Shown one piece after another: positions 13,321-60,270 of a DNA stretch of 64,000 nt; the stretch's first letter is position 1, and every line of letters starts with the position of its first letter. This DNA is from Octopus vulgaris. Its lineage: Eukaryota. The notes beneath the pieces are model-generated. The model was not told the DNA's origin, searched no databases, and saw only the letters and a program-made list of their open reading frames with translations. Location: NCBI GenBank assembly GCA_951406725.2, contig OX597814.1, positions 105,462,001 to 105,526,000 of the forward strand, written 5' to 3'. Position numbers and translations under genes: made by a program.

Positions 13321-13379
13321 ATGGGCGCTGATGAGGGGGCAAAACCCACCGAAAGAGGTCATATATGACCATTACCCAT
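13321..13379 (+). ncRNA. Type I hammerhead-like motif with canonical core
   Basis: ATGGG cg CTGATGA GG-GGG-CAAAA-CCC-A-CC GAAA GA GGTCATATATGACC AT TA CCCAT; 14 nt palindrome in stem III; 2 extra nt at the stem I junction. Confidence 0.55.
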
Positions 13380-14204
13380 TTTCCATCTTCGATCTCGTTG
13401 TTTGTTTACACCTGGCGTCTTGAATACGAAACGTCAGAACAAAGATCAGTGCTGACTTTTATTTCTATAGAATATAATTAGAGATAACCTTAATATATAA
13501 TACTTCCCCTACATTTTCTTAACCTCGGCATTATTATTTTTTTTTGACAGAAACTTCATCTCATCCAAACTGGGCCTTTGCTTGTGTGTTTAAAGAAATT
13601 ATATCAAACACGTAACTAAGATCACAGCAATACACTTAAATAGAAACAGGTGTTTCTTTATTAGCCACAGGGGCAAAAACATTGAAGGGGCAGCACAAGG
13701 ACAGACAACACAACGTTGAGACATAAAAAAGAACATAGACGGATGAATGAGATGAATTATAAATTCGATGAGGAGGAAATGGCTACTTGTACCCCAATAT
13801 GGAGTTGACCATTTGACTCTTTTCTCCTTTTTTTTATACACTGTTCATCAATTTTGGTATCAAAGAATACTTACTTTCGCCATATATGCTTTTAAGTCTA
13901 CATATTCCATTACCAGAGGTAGACGGTCATATCTCACCGCCAGTCCTAACGGGTCTTTGTTTTTCCAGAATTTTTCTCGTAATTGCTTATAGTTTTCCAA
14001 GTTAATAAATATCCCATGTCTTCTGGACAATCCGTTTGTGGCATATTCACTTTTATTACTGATTTTATCTTATTTAACTTCTTCTCAATGGCCGAGCTCT
14101 TTGAAAATATTCTTGTCTACTCTAGGCACAAGGCCCGAAATTTGGGGGTGGGTGGGCAGTCGATTAGATCGGCCCCAAATGGCCGAGCCCTTTGAAAATA
14201 TTCT

Positions 14205-14783
14205 TGTCTACTCTAGGCACAAGGCCCAAAATTTTGGGGGAGGTGGGGCAGTCGATGATATCGACCCCAGTATGTAACTGGTACTTAATTTATCGACCCC
14301 AAAAGGATGAAAGGCAAAGCCAACCGCGGCGGAATTTGAACTCATAACGTAAAGACAGAGGAAATACATATTTCTTTACTACCCACAAGGGGCTAAACAC
14401 CGAGAGGACAAACAAGGACAGACAAACGGATTAAGTCGATTATATCGACCCCAGTGCGTAACTGGTACTTAATTTATCGACCCCGAAAGGATGAAAGTTA
14501 AAGTCGACCTCGCAGAATTTGAACTCAGAACGTAGCGGCAGACGAAATACCTATTTCTTTACTACCCACAAGGGGCTAAACACAGAGAGGACAAACAAGG
14601 ACAGATAAACGGATTAAGTCGATTACATCGACTCCAGTTCGTAACAGGTACATAATTTATCGACCCCGAAAGGATGGAAGGCAAAGTCGACCTCGGTGGA
14701 ATTTGAACTCAGAACGTAACGGCAGACGAAATACGGCTACGCATTTCGCCCGGCATGATACCGATTCTGCCAGCTCGCCGCCT
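14205..14783 (-). mobile_element. Head-to-tail trimer of family B SINEs
   Basis: Units joined at GAAATAC|(C)TATTTCTTTACTACCC (~14368 and ~14551); only the last unit keeps the full head. Confidence 0.85.
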
Positions 14784-15242: not shown

Positions 15243-15816
15243 TCTTGACTCTTTATTATCATTCATTTGATATTTCAAAGAAAACACAGTGAGCTTACTA
15301 TCAAAACAAAGCACCATGTAGGGTACCACGTCATATACAGACATTTAAAGATTTTGTAGTTTATGTACAACCGAGATTTCAGCAATCTTATTAGAAAAAG
15401 ATCTAGCCTGAGATGAACAGCAAAAGAATTCTATTTGTGTCAATAAATGAATAAAAACTTACACTATACTCAAAAAGGAAATACGCCCTCGCAAATAGCA
15501 GTAATCTGTCAACTATGGATTCTAAAATGCATTTAAAATTCCTTCAAGTAATTTCTCACATCCACTCATTTTAAATTAATCTTAATTATCATAACACACA
15601 CTATTACAATTTACTTCCGTCCCCATAAAGTTAATTACAAAACTATGAAATAATAAATTTTACTGACCTATTCTCCATTTCATCAGTTATGATGCTCTAT
15701 CCAGCATCAAATTAGCTCCCTTTATGCAACCCTCACAGAACACCCTACGTAATGACTTATTTAACTGCTTACACTTCCCCTATCTCTCACTCGTTCCATA
15801 TATATATATATATATA

Positions 15817-16790
15817 TCCCTCCACTTCACTTCCACTATCTCCAACACCTCTGTCTCCTTCCTCGACATTTCGGTTAGCATTCTTCACTCCACTCTTACC
15901 ACCTCCATTCACTACAAACACACAGACTCACACTCATACCTCAACTTCTCTTCCTCCCACCCAGAACACACCAAGCTTTCCATCCCCTATTCCCAATTCC
16001 TCCGTCTACGTAGGATCTGTAGTGACGACCATGACTTTGAGACTCAGTCTCAACGTATGGCTCACCACTTCACCCTACGTGGATACCCCCTCACCATTAT
16101 CCACACCGCCCTTGCCGGAGCACGGTCCGTGGACCGTGTATCTGCTCTCTCTCCCCGAACCCGCCCTGTAGTCTCCCGCCTCCCTTTTCCCCTCACTTAC
16201 CACCCCACCACCCTACGTCTCCAACGCACCATTCTTCGAGCTTTCCGTCATCTCCAGTCCGACCCGTCCACTTCACACCTCTTCCCATAACCGACCCCTC
16301 CCCTCTTTCAAACGAGCCCACAACCTTCGAGACCTTTTGGTCCATAGCTCCTTCCCTGACCCTACCTCCCAACCCGGCTTGTTCCCCTGCTCCCGCCCAC
16401 GTTGCCGCACTTGCCCCTACTTCTCCAACACCACCCTCCTCACTAGCACCCACCATCGACCCTATCCCATCATCCACTCCTTCACCTGCACCTCCAGCAA
16501 TATTATCTATTGCGTCTCTTGCTCTCTCTGCCATTCCTTGTACATCGGACAAACGGGACGCCGCTTGGCTGACCGGTTCGCGGAACACCTTCGTGACATC
16601 CACCTTGCGAACGACACACCGGTCTCACGCCATTTCCGCTCCACCGGTCACTCCTTGCAACACCTATCTGTGTTCGGTTTGTCCTTACACAGAGGCCATC
16701 CGGATTCCCGTTTGCGCCGTGAACAAGAATTAATCTTCTCTCTTCGCTCTTATACACCATTTGGTCTCAACTCCCCCCCCCCCTCCTCAT
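15817..16790 (+). pseudogene. PLE RT C-terminus plus GIY-YIG endonuclease, frameshifted
   Basis: FLDISV...YKHTDSHSYL.FSSSHP...IPYSQFLRLRRICS; PCSRPRCRTC; IIYCVSCSLC..LYIGQTGR.L..RFAEH...RE...P.GLN. A single extra base near 16288 creates TAA and a +1 shift. Confidence 0.9.
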
Positions 16791-17437
16791 CTAACCCCCT
16801 CTCTCCGCCCCCTCCTCACCTATCCTTCCCCCCGACCCCTACTTCTTCAGTCCTTCATCCTTTCACCCCTACTCCCCTTCCCTTCTTCCCTCTTTCTCCC
16901 TCCCTCCTTCCCTCTTTCTCCCTCCCTCCTTCCCTCTTCCCCTTCCCTCTGCTCCCTCACTCCCCTTCTCTCTCCCCCTCTCCCCCTCTCCTCTCCTCTT
17001 CCCCCCTCTCCTCCCCCTCTTCTCCCCCTCCCCTCTTCTCCTCTCATACACACACACACACTTATACATACTAATACGTACTAATACATACTAATACATA
17101 CTAATATATACACCAACCCCATACATACGCACGTCCAGACCTATCATACGCACTAATACTCTCTCATACACACACACACACACACACCCTTATACATACT
17201 AATACATACTAATACATACACCAACCCTATACATACACACGTCCAGACCTCTCCTACGCACTAATAGCTGGTCATTCAACCCTATTATCAACCCTATTAT
17301 CTCCCCTTATTTCGCTCTCGCGTCTCATGTTTGATCTTTGACCTCTGGCCGAAATCAGATCGCCATGTTGATTCGTTAGTTACTGCACGCATTTTTTTCT
17401 CTCCTTCTTTCTGTGTTTTTTTTTTTCTCTCTGTGTA

Positions 17438-17608: not shown

Positions 17609-17802
17609 ATCCGTGAATCCAAACAAACAAGAACAAACAAGAAAAAGCGAGAACGTGGAACAAGTACTGTATTTTAAGACCCTCAGGAAAGGAAGGAAAG
17701 AGGCTTTAACGTTTCGAGCCTTGCTCCTCTTCAGAAGAAGAGGAAAGTCCAAAGGAAGGAAAGACGAATGTAGAAAATCGCCAACCATACACACGCGGTT
17801 AC

Positions 17803-18285: not shown

Positions 18286-18756
18286 GTGTACGCGCGCGTG
18301 TGTGTGTATTTGTAAAATTTCACAACCAAAAATTTCACAACCAACACAGACTCTATGTTGACTGGTGATACAATATGAACGGATTTTCGAAATCCAATGA
18401 TACCCTACACGCCTTTTGGTTGTGAAATTTTACAAATACACTTTCTCAGGGAGATACGATATACCTATTGCTATGGATAATACTACATGGACTTTTCATA
18501 TTTCTCATAGTGTGATGTAACTCTATGGAATAACAATGCATGTGGCTAAGAGAGCTTTAAACTATCTTTTATATCTATTATACAATGATGTAAGAATAGG
18601 TCGTTTATAAAGATTGAAACACGTGTACCACGACATCCTTTGTGTTCTCTTTTTGATTTTATTTGATATATACCCTCTCAACTCTGCCACTAGCTGGCGT
18701 ATACAGGTGCTTAAGCTTATCAAGTATATACATCTATATATATATATATATATATA

Positions 18757-19182
18757 TATTGTTATATTTCGGAATGGTCATATTGCCAGTTTAGCCAATA
18801 AAAACACACGCACTATATATTTGGTGTTATTTTGCTTCAGTGATATTTATTTTTTACATTAATCTTAATCTTATTTCGGCCAAAGTTCTTTCGTCACACT
18901 CCTGTGACCGCATCAGTGGTCCTTTGTTTTCTTCTCACTTACTTGTGTCTCTCCTTACTTGTGTCTCTCCTTACTAACCGTCAGCCATTTTGTAAGTAAG
19001 TGAGAAGAAAACAAAGGACCACTGATGCGGTCACAGGAGTGTGACGAAAGAACTTTGGCCGAAATAAGATTAAGATTAATGTAAAAAATAAATATCACTG
19101 AAGCAAAATAACACCAAATATATAGTGCGTGTGTTTTTATTGGCTAAACTGGCAATATGACCATTCCGAAATATAACAATAT
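18757..19182. repeat. ~188 bp near-perfect inverted repeat with an HHR motif in each arm
   Basis: Arms 18757-18944 and 18994-19182. Plus-strand HHR at 19016-19060: GGACCA CTGATGC G GTCACA-GGAG-TGTGAC GAAA G AA C TT TGGCC. Confidence 0.92.
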
Positions 19183-29596: not shown

Positions 29597-32500
29597 TCTC
29601 TCTATATATAAACGGCAGTTTGTCTGTGCGTGCTTCTGTGTGTCTGTTTTCTCGTACCCTCACCCTGACCACGGCTTTCAACCGATTCTGATGAAACTTG
29701 ACACACACATAGCCCAATGTCATAATTCAAAACTAACGCAGCGAAAATTTTGAAAAGTTCCCCCAGTTCTGAAAAAAATTGATAAATTCGACATGGGGTC
29801 GAGAATCATAAACATGAACCACAGACTGTCTAGGGGACGCAACTCGAGAATCTAAGCTTTTTTTATGCAACGCATTATCTATGGTAGTTTTCACAACTTG
29901 CAATCGATTTTCACCAAACTCATGGTGAAGCTTAATGTTACCCTAAGAAACTCAATTCTGACGTTAGTTTTCCATGCAATACCTTACCATCAGAAACAAT
30001 CGATAAAATCATGCCATTTTGGGAAATCGCGTTCAAATTCAAGATGACATATTTTCGACAATATCTTTCACAAATTGGCAGGAATCTTTTTTTTTTTCAC
30101 AACGAGCATCATGTCTGCTCCAAGGAGCTATATAGCCCTTTTTATTCCAATAGGATACATTATTGGAAAAAATCGGTTAATTTAATCATACGTGGCACAC
30201 ATAGCAAACAAATTTGTGTATTAAACACAAACCAGACTGTCTAGGGGACGCAACTTGACCTTTTTAGCTATCGATAATTCGATCCAACCAATTCCTACCA
30301 GGAAGAAATTACATTCGAGACTTTACCCCCAACACCGCCACTTCTGCTAATAGCTGCTGCAGCCACAAGTTATTCGAATACTTTTTTGGTTTAAACTTTC
30401 TTTATAACTACCACCCCAAACGTTTTACCTTCAATTTTTGACGTACCCTAACGGTCCTCGGACGCTACTTGCAAACTCTTGGTTTATTATAAACCACTTT
30501 TGTCGTGTGCATCAAAAAACTTTTCCTTTCGTTTGTTCAGTTTGATCACTTTTGACTTTTTCGTTGTTGTCACTCACATTGCTGCCAGCTTTTTGGCCGT
30601 TTTTGTACTTTTTATACATTTTCGGATACTTACCCCACGAGCTCCTTTTTATTACACCTTTACCAAACACATTACTATCCACCAAAATACTTACCCCACG
30701 TGTTCCTTTTTATTACACCTTTGCCAAACACATTGCTATCCACCAAAATGCCACCCAAGAAGAGAAGGACCCTCCTCAGCCCTCGGACGGCCAAGGCATC
30801 GGCTGCTAGGGCTAGAAGGGCACGCGAGACCCACGAGGAAACCGCCTTGCGCCTCTCGCAAACAGCTTCCCGTTATGCCGCTGCTCAGGCATCTGAAACT
30901 ACTAGCGACCGTTCTACCCGACTTGCAAGGGTCGCAGCGTACAGATCTTCCCTCCGCTCGAGGTTGACGAAAGAGCAAAAGTCCAGCCAAAACATGCGGG
31001 CTTCTTACTCTGCTTCCATCCGCAGAACGCGCGAGAACCCCGAACAAAGGGCCATTCGGAATGCGGCTAACGCCACTAGCACCGCCAGGACACGATCTGT
31101 CGAAACCTCACAGCAGAGGAGAACTCGCCAAGATGCTGACGCCGCAAACAAAGCCATGGCCAAAGCTGCCGAAACACCTCAACAGAGGAGAGCTCGCCAA
31201 GCTGCTAACGCCGCAAACACAGCCAGGGCTCGATCTGCCGAAACTCCACACCAACGGACTATTCGGACATCCAGACATGCCATTAACACTGCTTCTGCTA
31301 GGGCTTCAGAGGGTGCTGAGGCGAGAGCTGAAAGGCTTTCAAGGGATGCCACTGCTACCGCTGTCGCACGTGCATCTGAATCTGCTGAGGCACGGTGCAC
31401 TCGACTTGAGAGTATCAACAAACGTCGGGATATCATTCGTGGTGTACGTACCCCTGCCCCCGCTTTCTGGTTGTCACTAGCATTCAACTACGACGCCACA
31501 ATTAACTTCTCCTTGCGTGACGACATCAAGATAGGGTCAATGACAATTGTATGCCTGTTTTGCAAAGCCAAGAAATGGCCCGGAGAGCCACCTGGTTTGT
31601 GCTGCTCTGGTGGCAAAGTGGACCTGCCACCCCTACGGGAACCACCTCAACCACTGAAGGATCTCGCGGCGGGTTTAACCCCCGATTCGTCACAATTCCT
31701 TGAAATAATTCGAAAGTACAACTGCTCATTCCAAATGACCTCTTTCGGGGCCAAAATTCCTCCCAGAGAAGGCTGGATGCCTACTTTCAAAGTGCAGGGA
31801 CAGGTCTACCATCTTATTGGGTCACTTCTGCCAGACGAGATTCAGCAGTCTTCTTTCCTCCAAATATACTTCATTGCCGGCTACAACCACCAGGTTGATG
31901 CACGCCTTGGATTAATACCGGGTACAAGCTATGTTCCCCGCAAAGACGTTCTTCTCCGTCTCCAAACCATGCTTCATGATATCAACAGCTACGTCTGCAG
32001 CTTTAGATATGCCTTGGACAGTGCTCCATCTCCAAACTTCACCGTTGTCATTGATGCTGATAAACGACCCCACGGGGAGCACGAACGCCGTTTCAACGCA
32101 CCTGCGTGCAACGAAATTGCCGCAGTCATACACGGAGAGCAACACAACAGCCGTGACATAATCATCTCCTCCCGTGGTAACGACCTACACAGGATCAGCG
32201 AGACTCACAGATCTTATGACGCGCTTCAGTATCCATTGCTTTTCCCTTATGGGGAAGACGGCTACCACTTCGGAATTCCTTTACGGCAGCCCTCCAATCA
32301 AACTACTGCGGCATCAAAGACGGTTTCCTGCAGGGCGTTCTACTCATACCGGTTCATGGTCAGGGAGGGTGAGTTCAACTTATTGCCCCGTTGTCGTCAG
32401 CTATTCAACCAGTTCGCCGTCGACATGGCCGCAAAAATGGAATCGGAAAGGCTGCTATACATTAAACTTAATCAGACCAAACTTCGCTCCGACTCCTACA

Positions 32501-35500
32501 TTCATCTCCGTGACGGTTTGCAACAAGAAAATGACCCTCGCAACATCGGCAAGCCATGCATTCTACCCTCCACCTTCACGGGAGGACCGCGATATATGCG
32601 TGAAAGGACCCAAGACGCCTTGACCTACGTGCGCATTTACGGCCGGCCGGACCTCTTTATCACCTACACGTGCAATCCCAGCTGCGACGAAATCACTCGC
32701 GAACTCCTCCCGGGTCAATCTCACACCCATCGACACGATATCGTTGCTAGGGTTTTCCGTCTGAATTTGGGCAAAATGAAGGATTTGATAGTTAAGGGTC
32801 AGATTTTCGGGCATGTCAGGTGCCACATGTTTTCGGTCGAGTGGCAAAAGAGGGGCTTGCCACATGCTCACATCTTAATTTAGCTCACTCATAAAATCGA
32901 GACTAATGACATTGACAAATTCATTTCCGCCGAGATTCCTGACCCGATGAGGACCCCGGACTCTACGAAATTGTCCGCACTACCATGGTACACGGGCCCT
33001 GTGGACCAAATTACGCCAACACACCATGCTACAAAAACGGATTAGCCTGCTCAAAGGGATTCCCTAAACGGTTCACTTTGGAGACTCAAACAGGCGGCGA
33101 TGGGTATCCGCTGTACAAACGAAGGAGTCCAGCCAATGGAGGCCGCACGATTACGGTTGGGCGACATCAAGTGGACAACAGCTACATTGTCCCCTACTGT
33201 CCTCTCCTGTCGAAGATATTCAAAGCCCACGTCAACGTTGAGTTCTGCAGCTCCATCAGGTCAATACAATATGTCTGCAAATATATCAACAAAGGCAGCG
33301 ATGCTGCCATGTTCAGCATCCAGAGGACCACCAGTCGCGACGAAGTGTCCAACTACTTGGCTGGCCGGTACCTCAGCAGCAACGAAGCGTTTTGGCGCAT
33401 TTACGGCTTCCCGCTCCATCAGAGACACCCGGCTGTGGTGCAGCTTGCTGTACACTTGGAAAATGGACAGCGGATTTACTTTGGTGGATAGCTGTGCACA
33501 TAGCCACCAGCCCTAAAGACACAACGTTGACTGGTTTCTTCAAATTATGCCAACGTGATGACTTCGCTCGAACGCTTTTGTACCCACAGGTCCCATCGTA
33601 CTTCGTGTGGTCTAAAAACACCTGGGTCCGACGGAAATCCGGCAAAAACGTCGAAAGCTTCCCAGGCGTCAAGTTTGACTCCTGCCTGGGTCGAGTTTAC
33701 AACATCCCGCCAAACCAGCAAGAATGCTTCTACCTCCGTCTCCTTCTACATGAGGTCACTGGTCCAACAGGTTTCGCCAATATACGTACCGTCAATGGGG
33801 TTCTGTGCGACACCTTCAGGGAAGCATGTATGAGACTTGGCCTTCTAGAGGATGACTCCCAGTGGGACGCCACGATGGCAGAGGGTGCTTTACTGCAAAC
33901 GCATTCGGCCCTACGACATCTTTTCGCAATCCTTCTTCAAAAATGTCAGCTTAGTGATCCACTAAGTCTCTGGATGAAATACAGGGATGACATGTCGCAC
34001 GACTTCTTACGTACGGCTCAGCAACACTGCCCTTCCGCCGAGATCACGTTCACCAACTTCATTTACAATTTTGCGCTCATTCAACTCGAAGACGCTGTCA
34101 TCGATATGGGTGGGTCTGCTTTAACAGAGTACGGCCTTCCACCACCCACACGTGAACACGCCAATGTTATGTCTGCTGAATTGTTACGCGAAACTTCCTA
34201 CTGCATTGAGGAACTGCACCAGTACGTCCAAGATAATGAACCACGGCTGATTCCAGACCAGCGCATAGCCTACAACACCATCGTAGACTCTGTCAGACAG
34301 CAACGTGGGGGGATTTTCTTCCTTGATGCACCCGGCGGCACTGGCAAAACCTTCGTCACTAAACTAATTCTGGCAGAGGTCAGACGCAACACGGACATTG
34401 CCCTGGCTGTAGCTTCCTCTGGTATCGCGGCCACGTTGCTTCCGGGTGGCAGAACCGCCCACTCTGCCTTCAGACTCCCGCTCGATCTGGCAAAGTCCGA
34501 GTCACCTATCTGCAACATCGCCAAGAACTCAGAACAGGCCGACATTCTGCGCAGATGCAAACTCATCGTATGGGACGAGTGCACTATGGCACACAAAGGC
34601 GCCCTTGAGGCACTGGACAGGTCCCTGCAAGACATCAGAGACTCTACGGCCCCCATGGGAGGATTAACTTTACTTCTTTCAGGAGACTTCAGGCAGACTC
34701 TACCTGTTATTCCAAAAGGAACCCGTGCCGATGCCGTGCGCGCGTGCCTTAAGTCGTCAGCTCTTTGGGCACATGTGCGGCCCTTGCACCTCCAAACTAA
34801 CATGCGCGCGCAGTTAATTGGTGACAGCGGATCCGCTGCATTCTCCAGGGACCTCTTATCGCTCGGTGAAAATAGGATGCTGTCTGATGCGGATGGCTAC
34901 GTTCAATTGGACTCACTTTGCACCATTGTCGATACCCCTGCTAGCCTCCGGGACGCTGTCTTCCACGACCTACAAAACAATTTACGCGACCTAAAATGGC
35001 TGGCAGGCAGAGCTATTCTCGCACCCAAAAATACAACCGTCAACTCCATCAATATCCAGCTACTTGAAGCTATTCCTGGTGATGTCCACGTCTACAAATC
35101 TATAGATAGGACAGCAGACCCCGCCCAGCTTGCCGATTATCCTGTTGAATTCCTGAATTCACTTGAACCGCCAGGCCTGCCACCACACATCCTGAAGTTA
35201 AAAGTCGGTGCGCCCATTATGCTCATCAGGAATTTGGTTCCACCTAAACAGTGCAACGGCACACGTTTGGTTGTGAAACATTTGGCACCACATTTAATAA
35301 CGGCCACAATACTTACCGGTTGTGGGAAGGGAGAGGACGTCTTCATTCCACGGATGCACCTTCAACCGTCGGGCGCTGACCTACCAATCCACTTCAGGCG
35401 TTCTCAGTTTCCTGTTAAACTCTGCTTCGCAATGTCCATCAATAAATCCCAAGGCCAAACGCTACAAGTCGCTGGGTTACATTTGGGCGAACAGTGCTTC

Positions 35501-35736
35501 GCCCACGGTCAACTCTACGTGGGCTGTTCACGCGTTGGGAGGCGCAATGATGTTTTCATGTTTTCGCCCAAACGGACAGCTAGGAACATCGTATATACAG
35601 AAGTATTCCAGTGAAGACAAGACATTGCAACGTCCACATGCACCTTCGTTCCCTGGAGGGAAAGGACTACATTGGGATTAGTCGTTGCCTACTAGGGGCT
35701 CTTACATACCCGGGCAACGCCGGGCTATGCTGCTAG
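29597..35736 (+). mobile_element. Full-length Helitron
   Basis: 5' TC (TCTCTCTATATATAAAC), subterminal hairpin CCCGG-GCAACG-CCGGG (35709-35724), 3' CTAG, inserted between A(29596) and T(35737) with no TSD; contains a RepHel ORF. Confidence 0.95.
30748..35614 (+). pseudogene. Helitron Rep/PIF1 helicase with one premature stop and two frameshifts
   Basis: MPPKKRR start; Rep motifs PDLFITYTCNP, VEWQKRGLPHAHIL (HUH), YVCKYINK; PIF1 motifs APGGTGKT, IVWDE, GDFRQTLPV, QFPVKLCFAMSINKSQGQT, HGQLYVGCSRV. TAG at 32881 (probably from TGG); shifts near 32946 and 33485. Confidence 0.95.
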
Positions 35737-35910: not shown

Positions 35911-35997
35911 AAATGTATGCTGTTCTATATTTTAGAGATGAAGAATTCTGTACATTATTTACATTGGACGGATTTGTGTCTTCGTCCTTGTTATTAT

Positions 35998-36037
35998 CAC
36001 GTTTCGGCTGACTTACTCTCCAGCCTTCATCAGGTAT
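35998..36037 (-). ncRNA. Hammerhead relic with canonical core
   Basis: CTGATGA A GGCTG-(10 nt)-CAGCC GAAA CGT; cleavage triplet and stem I decayed. Confidence 0.55.
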
Positions 36038-38266: not shown

Positions 38267-38788
38267 TTAAGGTATGTAGAAAAATACAACATGGACAAGA
38301 ACGTATAACTCTTAGAAGACGACACAATAAACACGGACAGGACATTCGAAACCCTCAGTCTTCAGTCAAGAACCGGATCATCGTAGTAATTTCGGCTGAT
38401 TAATCTTGAGATTACTAGATCACGGCCAGCCCTCCAAGAAAAACCAAGCAACGAGCATTAGAAAAACTAAGCTGGAAGCGTAGATTTCCTGGAAGAAGGA
38501 TCGAATGCATACGAACACCAGGACAGCAAAAGGGACAGATATAAAAAAAAACAAAAAACAATAATGGAATACAGAAACATGAAATACAGAAGCATTAACG
38601 GTGAAAACAACAGTGTCTTACGACTGATAACAAGCAAACAAATTTTTTCTCTGGCGCAATGGAAAAAGCCTTTATAGTGGCGGACGAAAACAGCGATGTT
38701 AACAAGACGAGGGTCAGGAACTGAAAGGCAGATTTCGGCCAACAGTCACGTGACAGAGAAGAGGGAAAAGAAAAGAAAGAGAAGCAAA

Positions 38789-38822
<34 letters not shown>

Positions 38823-40033
38823 GGACAAACGCAACAAAGAGAGAGAAGAGAGAGAAAGAAGGAATCAGAGAGAAGGGATGGGTGTCGAAGAATGACCTGT
38901 GAGTGCAGAGCGAGACAAAGAAATAGGAGGGTAGTGGAAGACTAGACCAAAGAATCAGAGGAAAGAGAAGAGAAAAAGAGGATGAGTAGAGAGAAAGAGA
39001 GAGAGGGGGACAGATCAAGTAAAAATGAGAGAGAGAGAGAGACAAACAGAGAGTCGTACCAATTATTAAGAATATGTGCTCACATAAATGTTAAGGGGGG
39101 TACGGGGCGCCTGGAATATATGTTAAGGTATGTAGAAAAATACAACATGGACAAGAACGTATAACTCTTAGAAGACGACACAATAAACACGGACAGGACA
39201 TTCGAAACCCTCAGTCTTCAGTCAAGAACCGGATCATCGTAGTAATTTCGGCTGATTAATCTTGAGATTACTAGATCACGGCCAGCCCTCCAAGAAAAAC
39301 CAAGCAACGAGCATTAGAAAAACTAAGCTGGAAGCGTAGATTTCCTGGAAGAAGGATCGAATGCATACGAACACCAGGACAGCAAAAGGGACAGATATAA
39401 AAAAAAAAAAAACAATAATGGAATACAGAAACATGAAATACAGAAGCATTAACGGTGAAAACAACAGTGTCTTACGACTGATAACAAGCAAACAAATTTT
39501 TTCTCTGGCGCAATGGAAAAAGCCTTTATAGTGGCGGACGAAAACAGCGATGTTAACAAGACGAGGGTCAGGAACTGAAAGGCAGATTTCGGCCAACAGT
39601 CACGTGACAGAGAAGAGGGAAAAGAAAAGAAAGAGAAGCAAAGGAAGAGAGAGAGAGAGGAGAGAGAGAGAGGAGGGACAAACGCAACAAAGAGAGAGAA
39701 GAGAGAGAAAGAAGGAATCAGAGAGAAGGGATGGGTGTCGAAGAATGACCTGTGAGTGCAGAGCGAGACAAAGAAATAGGAGGGTAGTGGAAGACTAGAC
39801 CAAAGAATCAGAGGAAAGAGAAGAGAAAAAGAGGATGAGTAGAGAGAAAAGAGAGAGAGGGGGACAGATCAAGTAAAAATGAGAGAGAGAGAGAGACAAA
39901 CAGAGAGTCGTACCAATTATTAAGAATATGTGCTCACATAAATGTTAAGGGGGGTACGGGGCGCCTGGAATATATGTTAAGGTATGTAGAAAAATACAAC
40001 ATGGACAAGAACGTATAACTCTTAGAAGACGAC

Positions 40034-40038
<5 letters not shown>
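38267..40038 (-). repeat. Tandem array of ~855 bp non-coding units (2 full plus ~62 bp partial) between (TA)n tracts
   Basis: TTAAGGTATGTAGAAAAATAC recurs at 38267, 39123 and 39977; copies differ mainly in simple-sequence runs. Confidence 0.92.
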
Positions 40039-50761: not shown

Positions 50762-51513
50762 AAAGCGGCGAAACGGTAGAACCTATTTCTTTACTACCCA
50801 TAAGGGGCTAAACACAGAAGGGACAAACAAGGACAGACAAACGGATTAAGTCGATTTTATCGACCCCAGTGCGTAAATGGTACTTATTTAATCGACCCCG
50901 AAAGGATGAAAGGCAATGTCGACCTCGGCGGAAATTGAACTCAGAACATAAAGACAGACAAAATACCTATTTCTTTACTACCCACAAAGGGTTAAACACA
51001 GAGAGGACAAACAAGGACAGACAAACGGATTAAGTCGATATAATCGACCCTAGTGTGTAACTGGTACTTATTTAATCGACCCCGAAAGGATGAAAGGCAA
51101 AGTCGACCTCGGCGGAAATTGAACTCAGAACGTAACGGCAGACGAAATACCGCTCAGCATTTCGCCCGGCGTGCTAACGTTTGCCGAATAGAATGCTTAG
51201 CGGCATTTCGTCTGTCTTTGTGTTTTGAGTTCATATTCCACCGAGGTTGATTTTGCCTTTCATCCGTTCGGGAGTCGATGAAATAAGTACGAATTGATCA
51301 CTGGAGTGAGGGGGGATCGATGTAATCGACTTACCCCCTCCCCCGTAATTGCTGGCCTTGTGCCAAAGTTTGAAACCAATATTGTTATTGTTGTTGAGCT
51401 GGCAGAATCGTTGGCACGCCGGACAAAATGTTTAGTGGCATATCGTCCGTCTTCACGTCATGTGTTCAAATTCGACAGAAGTCGACTCTACCTGTTATGT
51501 TTTCGGGATCGAT
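50762..51513. mobile_element. Family B SINE cluster: minus-strand dimer (50783-51180) apparently nested in the head of a plus-strand copy, plus one more copy
   Basis: Plus-strand head remnant at 50762-50782 resumes at ~51181; dimer junction GACAAAATAC|CTATTTCTTTAC. Confidence 0.75.
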
Positions 51514-56454: not shown

Positions 56455-56610
56455 ATTGTCCACAAGGGGCTGAACATAGAGGGAACAAACAAGGACAGAC
56501 GAACAGATTAAGTCGATTACATCGACCTCAGTGCGTAACTGGTACTTAATTTATCGACCCCGTAATGATGAAAGGCAAAGTCGACCTTGGCGGAATTTGA
56601 ACTCAGAACG
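56455..56610 (-). mobile_element. Family B SINE, head truncated
   Basis: Tail CCACAAGGGGCTGAAC and core ATGAAAGGCAAAGTCGACC. Confidence 0.8.
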
Positions 56611-56851
56611 CATTGAGTCGAACCAGGGGCAGCTGATGAAGGGGAATTTTCCTTGTACTGTTTGTCCTGTACTCTATTTTTTCGTTGTTAAAAAAAGTCC
56701 GTTTCCTTTTTTGATTTTATGTTTTCGTTTCTCGCTGTGTTCTACGTTTATTTGTGGTGTCCTGTACTCATATATGCATGTATATATACATATAGATGTA
56801 GGTATGTACATATATGTATGTATATATGCATATGTTATATTCATTAAATTG

Positions 56852-56902
<51 letters not shown>

Positions 56903-56921
56903 CATACATACAAACATACAT

Positions 56922-56952
<31 letters not shown>

Positions 56953-57126
56953 TATATGGGTACAGGACGTCTCAAACTGAAAACAACATGAAATACGAAA
57001 ATAAATGAGTTGAATACTCAAACAACGAGAGAAACAAATGAAAAACAGGACAAGTCACATAAAGAACGACCCTTCATCAGTTATCGGTTGTCCATCTACT
57101 CCTCATTTCGAGCATTGAATGACAAG

Positions 57127-57128: not shown

Positions 57129-57162
<34 letters not shown>

Positions 57163-57165
<3 letters not shown>

Positions 57166-59018
57166 GGTTTTTTTTCTTTGTGTTAATTGTCTTGTACTCT
57201 ATTTTTTTGTTGTTTAAAAAATTTCCAGTTCCTTGGGTTTGTGTCTATGTTTTCGTTTTTCATTGTGTTCGACGTCTTTTTGGTGTCCTGTACTCATATA
57301 TGCGTGTATATGTACATGTAGAGGTAGGTACGTACATATATGTTTATATATATGCATATGTTTTATTTATTAATATATTATATGACGAAACGCACGCATC
57401 CCTTTTTAAGTAAGATTGTTCTTGATATTAACTTTGATGCGCACTCTTAACCTTTCTGTCCCATCCCTTTCTCAGCCTTCATTCTTTGATTTCCTTTTCC
57501 TCTACTTAACTTGTCTCTCCCTCTCTCTCATTCTTCATTCTCTCTCTCTCTCCCTCTCTCATTCTTCATGGTTTCCTCATGACCATTCCCCTTCTTCTCT
57601 CCCTTTCTCTTGCTCCTCTTCCCCCTCCCGTCGTTGACCCGTGACGAGACTTCCGCTACTGTCTTTCTAGCCTAACCCTCTCGAGGTGTGAACGGCAATT
57701 CTTTTTGCTCCGTTCGTCGTTCACAAAAAAATGCTCGTTCGTAATACTTTTTTTCGTTCGGCGTTAACAACCCTTCTTATCTTGTTTTTCCTTGTCCTGT
57801 CTTTTACTGCTTATTATTTGTACTGTCGTTACTGTCCTGTTTTTGTTACCATTTTTTTACCTCTCTGCGAAAAGATCTCAAAATTTTAATTGATTTGCTT
57901 TTCGCAGGAAGGAAATTTTCTTGTCGAAGATACGTCTCGCTTTCACCTTCGAAACGTAGAGTAGATGAAACCATAGCGACTGAAGAAGGGGATTTTTCTT
58001 TGTGTTAATTGTCCTGTACTCTATTTTTTTGTTGTTTAAAAAAATGTCCAGTTCCTTGGGTTTCTGTCTATGTTTTCGTTTCTCATTGTGTTCGACGTCT
58101 TTTTGGTGTCCTGTACTCATATATGCGTGTATATGTACATGTAGAGGTAGGTACGTACATATATGTTTATATATATGCATATGTTTTATTTATTAATATA
58201 TTATATGACGAAACGCACGCATCCCTTTTTAAGTAAGATTGTTCTTGATATTAACTTTGATGCGCACTCTTAACCTTTCTGTCCCATCCCTTTCTCAGCC
58301 TTCATTCTTTGATTTCCTTTTCCTCTACTTAACTTGTCTCTCCCTCTCTCTCATTCTTCATTCTCTCTCTCTCTCCCTCTCTCATTCTTCATGGTTTCCT
58401 CATGACCATTCCCCTTCTTCTCTCCCTTTCTCTTGCTCCTCTTCCCCCCTCCCGTCGTTGACCCGTGACGAGACTTCCGCTACTGTCTTTCTAGCCTAAC
58501 CCTCTCGAGGTGTGAACGGCAATTCTTTTTGCTCCGTTCGTCGTTCACAAAAAAATGCTCGTTCGTAATACTTTTTTTCGTTCGGCGTTAACAACCCTTC
58601 TTATCTTGTTTTTCCTTGTCCTGTCTTTTACTGCTTATTATTTGTACTGTCGTTACTGTCCTGTTTTTGTTACCATTTTTTTACCTCTCTGCGAAAAGAT
58701 CTCAAAATTTTAATTGATTTGCTTTTCGCAGGAAGGAAATTTTCTTGTCGAAGATACGTCTCGCTTTCACCTTCGAAACGTAGAGTAGATGAAACCATAG
58801 CGACTGAAGAAGGGGATTTTTCTTTGTGTTAATTGTCCTGTACTCTATTTTTTTGTTGTTTAAAAAAATGTCCAGTTCCTTGGGTTTCTGTCTATGTTTT
58901 CGTTTCTCATTGTGTTCGACGTCTTTTTGGTGTCCTGTACTCATATATGCGTGTATATGTACATGTAGAGGTAGGTACGTACATATATGTTTATATATAT
59001 GCATATGTTTTATTTATT

Positions 59019-59020
<2 letters not shown>
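57163..59020 (+). repeat. Tandem array of 824 bp non-coding units (~215 bp partial plus 2 full) between (TA)n tracts
   Basis: Period 824 (for example GAAACGTAGAG at 57951 and 58775). Confidence 0.93.
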
Positions 59021-59063
<43 letters not shown>

Positions 59064-59096
59064 TAATCAAAATAAAAACATGACGCCAAGGATTCA

Positions 59097-59174
59097 GCGG
59101 TACGTATGTTTCGGGCCTTTATTAGACGGATTTATAACAATGCATAATGTATGTCTGTGGCCTTCTTCAGCCGC
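59097..59174 (-). ncRNA. Type I hammerhead with canonical core and extended stem II, inside an inverted repeat (59061-59105 / 59177-59226)
   Basis: GCGG CTGAAGA A GGCC-(~45 nt)-GGCC C GAAA C ATAC G TA CCGC: stems I-III present, GUA triplet. Confidence 0.72.
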
Positions 59175-59292
59175 GCACGTACCGCTGAATCCCTGGCGTC
59201 ATGTTTTTATTTTATTTTGATTAATTTACTCCACCACCTACACCACCAAACGGTATATACAGGTGCTTACAATTATCAAGTACTCACCCCGA

Positions 59293-59336
<44 letters not shown>

Positions 59337-60004
59337 GATACCCATTGCAATGGGATTGCAGCAGCGTAGAAACCAACTGCTTCGGGAGCACCAAGAATAA
59401 GCAATCTGCAGTTTCGCCCCGTTCGATATCATAGCTATCGAAATCCTTTCTCCTGATGGCTTTAGATTTTGGCAGGCAACTCATCGATATCAACGACCTC
59501 GATATCAGAATATCATGAACTGGGAAGTAAATCTTGTTTTCCGCTCGTCCCTACTGAGTGCAGAGGGAAAGCGGCCCACTGTTCACACATCTATGGGGAG
59601 CTACGGTATATGGATAACTGACCTCGTCGGGTTATCTATCGTGGATATCTTAAGGAAGCGTACTGGCCCCAACAGATCGGCGTTGTGTAGGAACGATGGT
59701 CGGGCATTCTCAAACGATATGAACGACCACATCATAGACAAGTTCAGTAAGGATCGAATAAAGATCTCCAAAGCAGTCGGCCAATCTATAACGGTTGCTG
59801 CCAATTTGGAAAAAAGTCGTCTTCCTGGACATAACTCTAGATTTGCTTGCTTTGTGCTTTTGCCTGGTGGTGGGATTAGGGTAATCCTAGATTAGTGGTC
59901 TCGGACACCTTATTCCGGTTTCAGTCCCAGTATACTCACCAATGCTTTGTCAGTGGGTTGGATAAATGGAAACTGTATGGAAGCCTATCGTGTGTGTGTA
60001 TATG

Positions 60005-60113: not shown

Positions 60114-60270
60114 TGGTGAGAATTTACGAAAAATAAAAAAACAAAAGACGGGTGTGTAAACAACAAACAAATGTATTAGTTTAACGCTCGGGAATTCGGG
60201 AATTGAGGAAGTCTTTTATGTTTCGAGCCTACGCTCTTCAGCAGAAAGGTACTGAGAGAGAAAATATAAA
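60114..60270 (-). mobile_element. PLE 3' tail fragment with HHR (60212-60248, A6C variant)
   Basis: CTTT CTGCTGA A GAGC-GTAG-GCTC GAAA CA TA AAAG; tail similar to 17476-17560; ends in (TA)n. Confidence 0.72.

Follow-up and report, generated by a model that had tools for sequence, protein, structure and literature searches.

The tandem array at positions 57163-59021 of a 64,000-nt stretch of Octopus vulgaris DNA (contig OX597814.1; the whole stretch is called the window) raises the question of which self-cleaving RNA it carries and which retrotransposon moves it. Sequence comparison bore out the initial annotation of a partial unit plus two full non-coding units on (TA)n. The 5'-truncated, pseudo-LTR-like upstream partial unit (57163-57374, + strand) starts at the end of the CUGANGA block and is followed by full unit 1 (57375-58197, +, 823 nt, junction phase placed to within a few nt) and full unit 2 (58198-59021, +, 824 nt), which ends at the fixed 3' end of its family, here called A. 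The target microsatellite was read from the sequence on the 5' side (57129-57162) and on the 3' side (59022-59060), with no strand assigned. A single 1-nt indel is the sole difference between the full units, and the 824-nt period proposed earlier fits unit 2 but is not uniform, unit 1 having 823 nt. The longest ATG-started frame per unit has 79 aa on the + strand and 100 aa on the - strand, and the ORF of an autonomous Naiad (N-terminal GIY-YIG, CxC linker, RT) is absent from the unit sequence.

We consider it probable that the unit is a non-autonomous derivative of a Naiad-type Penelope-like element (PLE), with a reversed-order hammerhead whose stem II uses an upstream strand and whose predicted cut lies after C57936. 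The 561-nt unit piece compared with the genome (2.8 Gb) gave 3,570 candidates, and the 40 scored were 93-100% identical. Across 28 other fetched family-A loci, the 3' end falls at the same position on (TA)n in 27 (the exception is L021), the 5' ends are variable, and 13 have an upstream partial unit joined via an invariant junction. The traits of a PLE derivative are present: a fixed 3' end, variable 5' truncation and a partial tandem with an invariant junction, an anatomy described for PLEs in the accessible text of Craig et al. 2021. They support the earlier proposal of a non-autonomous Penelope-like passenger with a rearranged hammerhead at its 3' end. An additional tail of about 40-45 nt past the junction was found in 7 of the 28 fully printed rows of the related family C, and beyond the 3' end in 0 of 28 family-A loci.

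The ribozyme had been read as a circularly permuted, type II-like hammerhead. Its basic observation, GAAA before CUGAAGA at 57946-57991 and 58770-58815, was confirmed. A type II (GSC) hammerhead with its cut at the GUA near 57963 is nevertheless almost certainly the wrong reading. GAAA does precede CUGANGA, and in families A and B a GUA triplet stands between them. The best fold of the type II hairpins, however, leaves stem III with 2 bp and stem I with 0 bp, both in the window and in nearly every one of the 156 motif hits scanned. Families C, D, E and Naiad have no such GUA, the linker bases covary with upstream strands, and the targeted Rfam scan of the motif region gave no hammerhead model at E<=10. 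The whole-window Rfam scan was dominated by microsatellite matches among the 150 of 296 matches listed. The predicted cut moves from GUA at about 57963 to the bond between 57936 and 57937, after C17 of GUC 57934-57936.

The predicted fold of the window copy (all strands +) begins with the stem II 5' strand at 57908-57912 (G10.1 = 57908), which pairs with 57946-57950. It is followed by the 5' strand of a fourth helix bridging stems I and II (57916-57925), which pairs with 57964-57971 and is weak here (-3.3 kcal/mol). The S block (57931-57941) holds the stem III 3' strand (57931-57935), C17 (57936) and the stem I 5' strand (57937-57941); the G block (57946-57958) holds the stem II 3' strand (57946-57950), GAAA (57951-57954) and the stem III 5' strand (57954-57958). 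The C block (57975-57986) lacks stem II and consists of the stem I 3' strand (57975-57979) and CUGAAGA (57980-57986). For stem III, ACGUA after GAA pairs with UACGU at 57931-57935, which precedes C57936; for stem I, UCGCU after C57936 pairs with AGCGA before CUGAAGA. The block order is therefore II(5'), fourth helix, S, G, fourth helix, I'/CUGANGA, and all four helices lie locally within 79 nt. The hammerhead core is complete: CUGANGA, GAAA, NUH, A15.1-U16.1 and G10.1-C11.1, with C17 in GUC. The cut lies 14-17 nt upstream of G12, and the linker between stems I and II has 3-6 nt beyond 5-bp stems. The stem II 5' strand is found about 25 nt upstream of the cut and not after CUGANGA, leaving A9 unlinked from G10.1. 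Directly after A9, a small hairpin (57988-58001, +) is predicted as a local fold; it is the G-run that the initial annotation had assigned to stem II, and it is predicted in families A, C and D, not in all. Unit 2 contains a second identical motif (58732-58810, +; predicted cut between 58760 and 58761).

Judged from its sequence, the motif is a non-circular permutation of the SGC class with the cleavage block upstream of GAAA, and it would correspond to the SGC circle opened between A9 and G10.1. The linker of 3-4 nt between stems I and II, together with the fourth helix, probably stands in for the loop I/II contact. Protein-free self-cleavage after C57936 and C58760 is predicted by analogy with validated SGC and CSG ribozymes and with the extra base after A9 in PLE hammerheads. 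The global MFE fold did not show the motif (z 0.33); that method cannot model pseudoknots.

For the multimers, template jumping or reverse transcription of a circular RNA had been suggested; the circular origin is not supported for this array. At 5 of 179 nt the partial unit departs from the full units, which match each other at 200 of 200 nt there, so that the array is unlikely to stem from a single rolling pass over a monomer circle. The second full unit likely arose by a template jump to a sister transcript or by later local duplication. Assembly duplication is made less likely by the recurrence of two-unit arrays. We also find it very unlikely that the ribozyme assembles mainly between units or molecules, with G and C of one joined to II and S of the next, and that re-ligated monomer circles are reverse-transcribed into arrays as in non-LTR retrozymes. 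A twice-cut 824-nt monomer would carry G and C at its 5' side and II and S at its 3' side and could refold and ligate; the recurrence of two-unit arrays (the family-E array of this window, and motif pairs 836-1135 nt apart) and the distance of partial units, 3.4% from their own main unit versus 4.2% from others, agree with such circles. However, all four helices are available within one unit, and the divergence of the partial unit contrasts with one indel in 824 between the full units.

The upstream stem II was examined by covariation between families. Families A, B, C and E were found without a pattern search. The 17 family representatives comprised 14 clusters from 76 of the 156 hits, those with all three stems of >=4 bp, and hand-picked rows. 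By anchored counting, inflated by the relatedness of the families and by the selection of upstream-II offsets for best pairing, upstream stem II was Watson-Crick in 85 of 85 pairs (swap control 0.58; 0 of 20000 permutations) and the G10.1-C11.1 pair was present in 17 of 17 representatives. Stems III and I had 74 and 77 of 85 Watson-Crick pairs, with one row off by 1 nt that gives 4 of 5 in each when aligned. The fourth helix, formed by the strand after stem II with the strand before stem I, had -8.0 versus -4.7 kcal/mol when swapped (0 of 5000). The stem II strands are GAAGG/CCUUC in families A, C and D, GAGCA/UGCUC in B, GGCUG/CAGCC in E and GACAC/GUGUC in Naiad. Both sides are changed in family B (stem III CUCAU/AUGAG, stem I UUGUCG/CGACAA) and in family C (stem III CGUGU/ACACG, stem I CUGCCC/GGGCAG). 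Positions C3-A9, G12-A14 and A15.1-U16.1 are kept, and H17 is never G, across families and phyla.

Because the offsets had been chosen by best pairing among kin families, the test was repeated on a plain, unfitted MAFFT alignment of 12 sequences, 5 from this genome and 7 metagenomic ones that had passed a filter including stem II pairing: upstream II was 100% paired with a covariation of 0.879 (0 of 500 shuffles), versus 50% and 0.182 for downstream II (104 of 500). The family covariation check suggested earlier came out positive for upstream II, III, I and the fourth helix and negative for the downstream stem II. A further helix, between the flank ahead of G10.1 and the flank that follows A9, was considered and rejected, its own pairs being no better than swapped ones (own -3.30 versus -3.34, and -3.39 versus -3.45 kcal/mol swapped).

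These data also bear on whether octopus families A-D carry an ordinary type SGC hammerhead on the downstream G-run, with the upstream pairing as an off-switch or the two pairings alternating, which we consider quite unlikely. Three to four pairs (1-2 Watson-Crick) can be drawn in families A, B and C, and a G-to-A change strengthens one wobble pair in 4 of 30 loci of family B; but the three downstream registers gave 21, 30 and 28 of 85 Watson-Crick pairs, none above swapped families, the unfitted alignment left this helix half paired, and metagenomic elements gave 8-10 of 40. Only 0-1 pairs are found in family E, D_L015, and the coral and box-jellyfish-section Naiads, and in A, C and D the G-run folds into a hairpin of its own. 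The earlier stem II, with GGGG or GGGT after CUGANGA, was no better than the family-swap control. The upstream pairing is retained below as the preferred reading of the motif.

Several relatives of the unit are located in the window. The family-B relative (56950-57125, -) is 5'-truncated at the predicted cut and lacks the upstream half (S block); at 57125, the stem I 5' strand begins the copy after 3 extra bases. Its core at 57074-57109 (-) had been described as a diverged relative: GAAA, CUGAUGA and the spacing are kept as stated, and the claimed GGGT stem II fares no better than the swap control. The family-C relative (56608-56857, +) is 5'-truncated inside the G block. A second array of the same superfamily, family E (38268-40035, -), consists of a partial unit and two units of about 856 nt with 3 differences in 853, and has the same motif in each full unit (cores 38359-38393 and 39215-39249). 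Families E and A have no extended similarity outside pyrimidine tracts.

The motif is abundant genome-wide. Two disjoint patterns gave 10,691 + 1,353 = 12,044 hits in the whole genome, versus 186 + 33 = 219 for the reversed controls, and the GAAA/CUGANGA arrangement lies far above chance (10,691 hits versus 186). Among the first 100 listed hits of the 10,691-hit pattern, 94 were judged family members and six were dropped.

Copy ends near the predicted cut were analyzed for traces of cleavage. According to copies picked by their G and C blocks, 24 of 94 have 5' ends 2-17 nt upstream of G12, where the cut falls at 14-16, versus 10 of 70 in the next 28 nt, and five copies start exactly at the predicted cut (L031, L039, L109, L113, L115). 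In family C, about 6 of 29 copies have their 5' ends within the linker between the G and C blocks, and stalling of the reverse transcriptase may explain part of the 5'-end excess. The excess is ambiguous, a hint of cleavage in vivo and not proof.

The start of the motif coincides with a splice acceptor. A putative retained intron is predicted in unit 1 (57410-57907, +; donor GT at 57410, acceptor AG at 57906-57907) and, by sequence, likewise in unit 2 (58233-58731, +), and G10.1 (57908) is the first base after the acceptor AG. One contig of run X15, a run not on record as RNA, has foreign sequence joined directly to G10.1. The joined sequence is an EGF-domain exon of this genome (C6:11093500-11093620) followed by GTGAGT, and a family-A copy with AG/GAAGG lies 1,574 nt downstream of it (C6:11093500-11095300; L382, L385). 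The copy sits in an intron of an EGF-repeat gene, and two more near-identical EGF exons are located on C6 at 11103062 and 11114871. No joint of an internal intron or of a circle occurred in the contigs, a type of data that cannot reveal a circle. The exon, its GTGAGT and the downstream copy indicate that the acceptor before G10.1 is used in one family-A copy, with the ribozyme starting at the first base of the exon, as observed in one contig of one run. The acceptor is not universal, since of 45 intact copies 23 have CAG and 1 has TAG directly ahead of G10.1. In some Naiad copies (e.g., L164, L166) A9 is followed at 5 nt by a donor-like GAG/GTATGT, and G10.1 is preceded at 7 nt by an acceptor-like TTTTAG; if tandem Naiad copies were spliced to each other, these sites could bring A9 and G10.1 within 12 nt.

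The driver class is likely Naiad rather than the canonical PLEs with type I hammerheads. Of 30 Naiad RT C-terminal loci in this genome, 19 are followed by the motif region at a distance of at most 1.5 kb (two of them were already known from the motif pattern), as are 3 of 20 weaker, mostly older RT hits. At the 3' end, the Naiad copies of this genome are nearly identical in sequence to the published Naiad_Ovul, and the split-form motif is present in the Naiad_Ovul and Naiad_Obim consensi, while the Naiad_Omin consensus ends without it. The published consensi were screened by four heptamer searches and then read by eye, which misses motifs split over line ends; on this basis at least 9 of 54 carry the split form (two Octopus, three Acropora, and four others in parts 9, 12, 12 and 19), one of the three Acropora elements having a stem II mismatch, with one further weak case among the 54. 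At least 6 of the 54 have a clean type CSG hammerhead, three from Nippostrongylus and three in File S5 parts 13, 15 and 16.

Homologue searches extended the link to metagenomic elements. With a 292-aa Naiad RT frame from this genome 40 proteins were retrieved, and the N-terminal GIY-YIG was present in the two that were read; the search with a 98-aa piece retrieved nothing. Several Naiad-like proteins of 660-1340 aa (P0026-P0039) gave an extra PF00443 (ubiquitin carboxyl-terminal hydrolase) domain hit. The 80 metagenomic Naiad-like loci contain 11 split forms (one is the 5' copy of another's) and 3 CSG forms, versus 0.7 loci per 80 in the shuffle control, and a type I, II or III hammerhead was found in 0 of 80. 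Their fourth helix, which was outside the filter, has -16.0 versus -6.5 kcal/mol when swapped and 8-11 bp in most. Clean CSG forms are found in L332 and L352. L374 (3020-3120) is a CSG form in which 23 nt with two hairpins are inserted between A9 and G10.1, and it is, by its sequence, a bridge between the CSG and split forms. Where the 3' flank has >=300 nt, as in 59 metagenomic loci, 46 of them lack the motif there in any block order, and Rfam found nothing in 20 motif-less Naiad-like loci; such loci are candidates for other, unknown self-cleaving motifs.

Family A and the Naiads of this genome have in common only the ribozyme motif and the (TA)n target, and no extended sequence. The Naiads seen here are decayed, unlike the young family A, and the Naiad loci inspected in this genome included no young intact element whose tail resembles that of family A. 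PLE-protein hits inside family loci were rejected as a driver, being on the opposite strand or in the flanks only.

The covarying fold could instead serve the Naiad protein as an RNA handle derived from a hammerhead, or cleave only with that protein bound, which we regard as possible but unlikely. The missing A9-G10.1 link, the many Naiad-like loci without the motif and the spread of the truncation excess across the whole motif are consistent with a handle, as is the anole Poseidon hammerhead, for which the accessible text of PMC11167929 describes cleavage only with protein, no need of it for insertion in vitro, and no reads ending at the cut. The conservation of all catalytic positions across families and phyla argues against it, as do the intact-core CSG hammerheads in the same place in nematode Naiads and the copies beginning exactly at the predicted cut.

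Under the self-cleaving, Naiad-mobilised reading that we prefer, read-through transcription from the upstream partial unit would produce multimers. The (TA)n target would be nicked by the Naiad protein, with priming either at the fixed 3' end or some 40 nt past it, giving the tail, and family A would so be mobilised in trans; internal priming at the junction is shown for anole Poseidon in the accessible part of PMC11167929. Cut templates would yield copies of about 260 nt ending near the cut, and uncut, re-ligated or jumped templates would yield partial tandems.

The window has other features related to mobile elements. Directly past the array, a smaller hairpin lies at 59067-59216, and a decayed PLE RT fragment is located at 59345-59770 (+); its relatives have a C-terminal endonuclease-like part, one of them (L136) with a type I hammerhead, and they look to us like the Hydra clade, an assumption with no Pfam support. 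The fragment was rejected as a driver: its 19 fetched relatives are old (65-79% identity) and had a linked motif in 0 of 19. Type I minimal hammerhead-like motifs of other PLE families are found at 60205-60241 (-), 35992-36033 (-), 17696-17734 (-) and 13328-13365 (+). The frameshifted piece at 15667-17074 (+), coding for a PLE RT end and a GIY-YIG-like part with no Pfam hit, is presumably Neptune-like. Two long, largely intact frames of 775 and 790 aa with replicase- and helicase-like motifs (30556-35614, +) we take to be Helitron-like. At 18756-19182 lies a perfect inverted repeat, its 189-nt arms separated by a 49-nt spacer. Tandem copies (183-184 nt) of a common SINE-like repeat are located at 14087-14734 and 50781-51151, with the repeat also at 56455-56608.

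The reversed-order hammerhead with an open A9-G10.1 junction, in Naiads and their non-coding passengers, is apparently new as a sequence class: the open-access literature searched, taken without subscription papers and the Eckert supplements, gave no report of a hammerhead with A9 unlinked from G10.1. A wider proposal, for and against which we find the balance about even, is that non-circularly permuted hammerheads have their main natural home in Naiads across animal phyla, among them an active seventh topology with its opening in the catalytic core, and that the >12,000 copies here start at a 3' splice site, the intronic ones being self-cleaving splice traps on host pre-mRNAs. If this is true, non-circular permutations would pass from rare metatranscriptome oddities to abundant elements of eukaryotic genomes, and a topology beyond the six considered possible would be added. 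The published absence of hammerheads in Naiads would also be corrected, making the ribozyme again a near-general PLE feature with a testable role. The accessible text of Craig et al. 2021 (PMC8557442) used type I-style descriptors and reported no hammerhead in Naiads, and its File S1 marks nine Naiads "HHR_core" and eight "HHR_half_core"; the split-core reversed form would explain the reported absence. Type I descriptors and Rfam miss these forms, and the ribozyme counts of invertebrates are therefore likely too low. A hammerhead tolerating an open A9-G10.1 junction would be a new insertion point for RNA engineering, and the CSG hammerheads of the nematode-section Naiads have long stems.

Compared with known systems, the motif is closest in layout to type SGC (HRIMA-1), which according to the accessible text of Eckert et al. 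2023 (PMC10085705) is biochemically validated and known from metatranscriptomes only, with no genome of a known organism. The S-G-C order, the crossing stems I, II and III, the I-II linker of about 3 nt, the full core and a fourth helix that links stems I and II at their distal ends are common to both. In type SGC, however, the C block has stem II within 1-2 nt after CUGANGA, and at most 1-2 inserted nt are assumed between A9 and G10.1 in that text, whereas here the stem II 5' strand precedes the cut by about 25 nt, and the motif occurs both in retrotransposons and in the genome of an animal. The motif works like SGC and is not filed as type SGC because an intact C block is absent. Type CSG, known from two metagenomic sequences in the same source, has the same reversed cyclic order, but here the circle is opened between A9 and G10.1 and not at the stem III linker.

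The unit has in common with Naiad PLEs the (TA)n preference, partial tandems, the optional tail, a putative 5'-UTR-type intron and the 3' ribozyme motif, but no ORF. Like the non-LTR retrozymes, in the accessible part of bioRxiv 10.64898/2026.07.22.740005, it is non-coding, PLE-derived and has a ribozyme in each tandem unit. Those elements are defined by type I hammerheads and were found with type I descriptors only, whereas the array has no type I hammerhead in its tandem units and instead carries the reversed-order form, in units of about 820-860 nt with a putative intron, mostly as dispersed partial tandems. An extra base after A9 is common in PLE hammerheads (Cervera and de la Pena 2014, PMC4209133, accessible text), and the Drosophila virilis Penelope hammerhead in the same source is type I, with the intron end at the start of helix I. 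The end of the intron, putative in the present unit, is the start of a ribozyme helix in both elements, and here the acceptor abuts helix II at G10.1.
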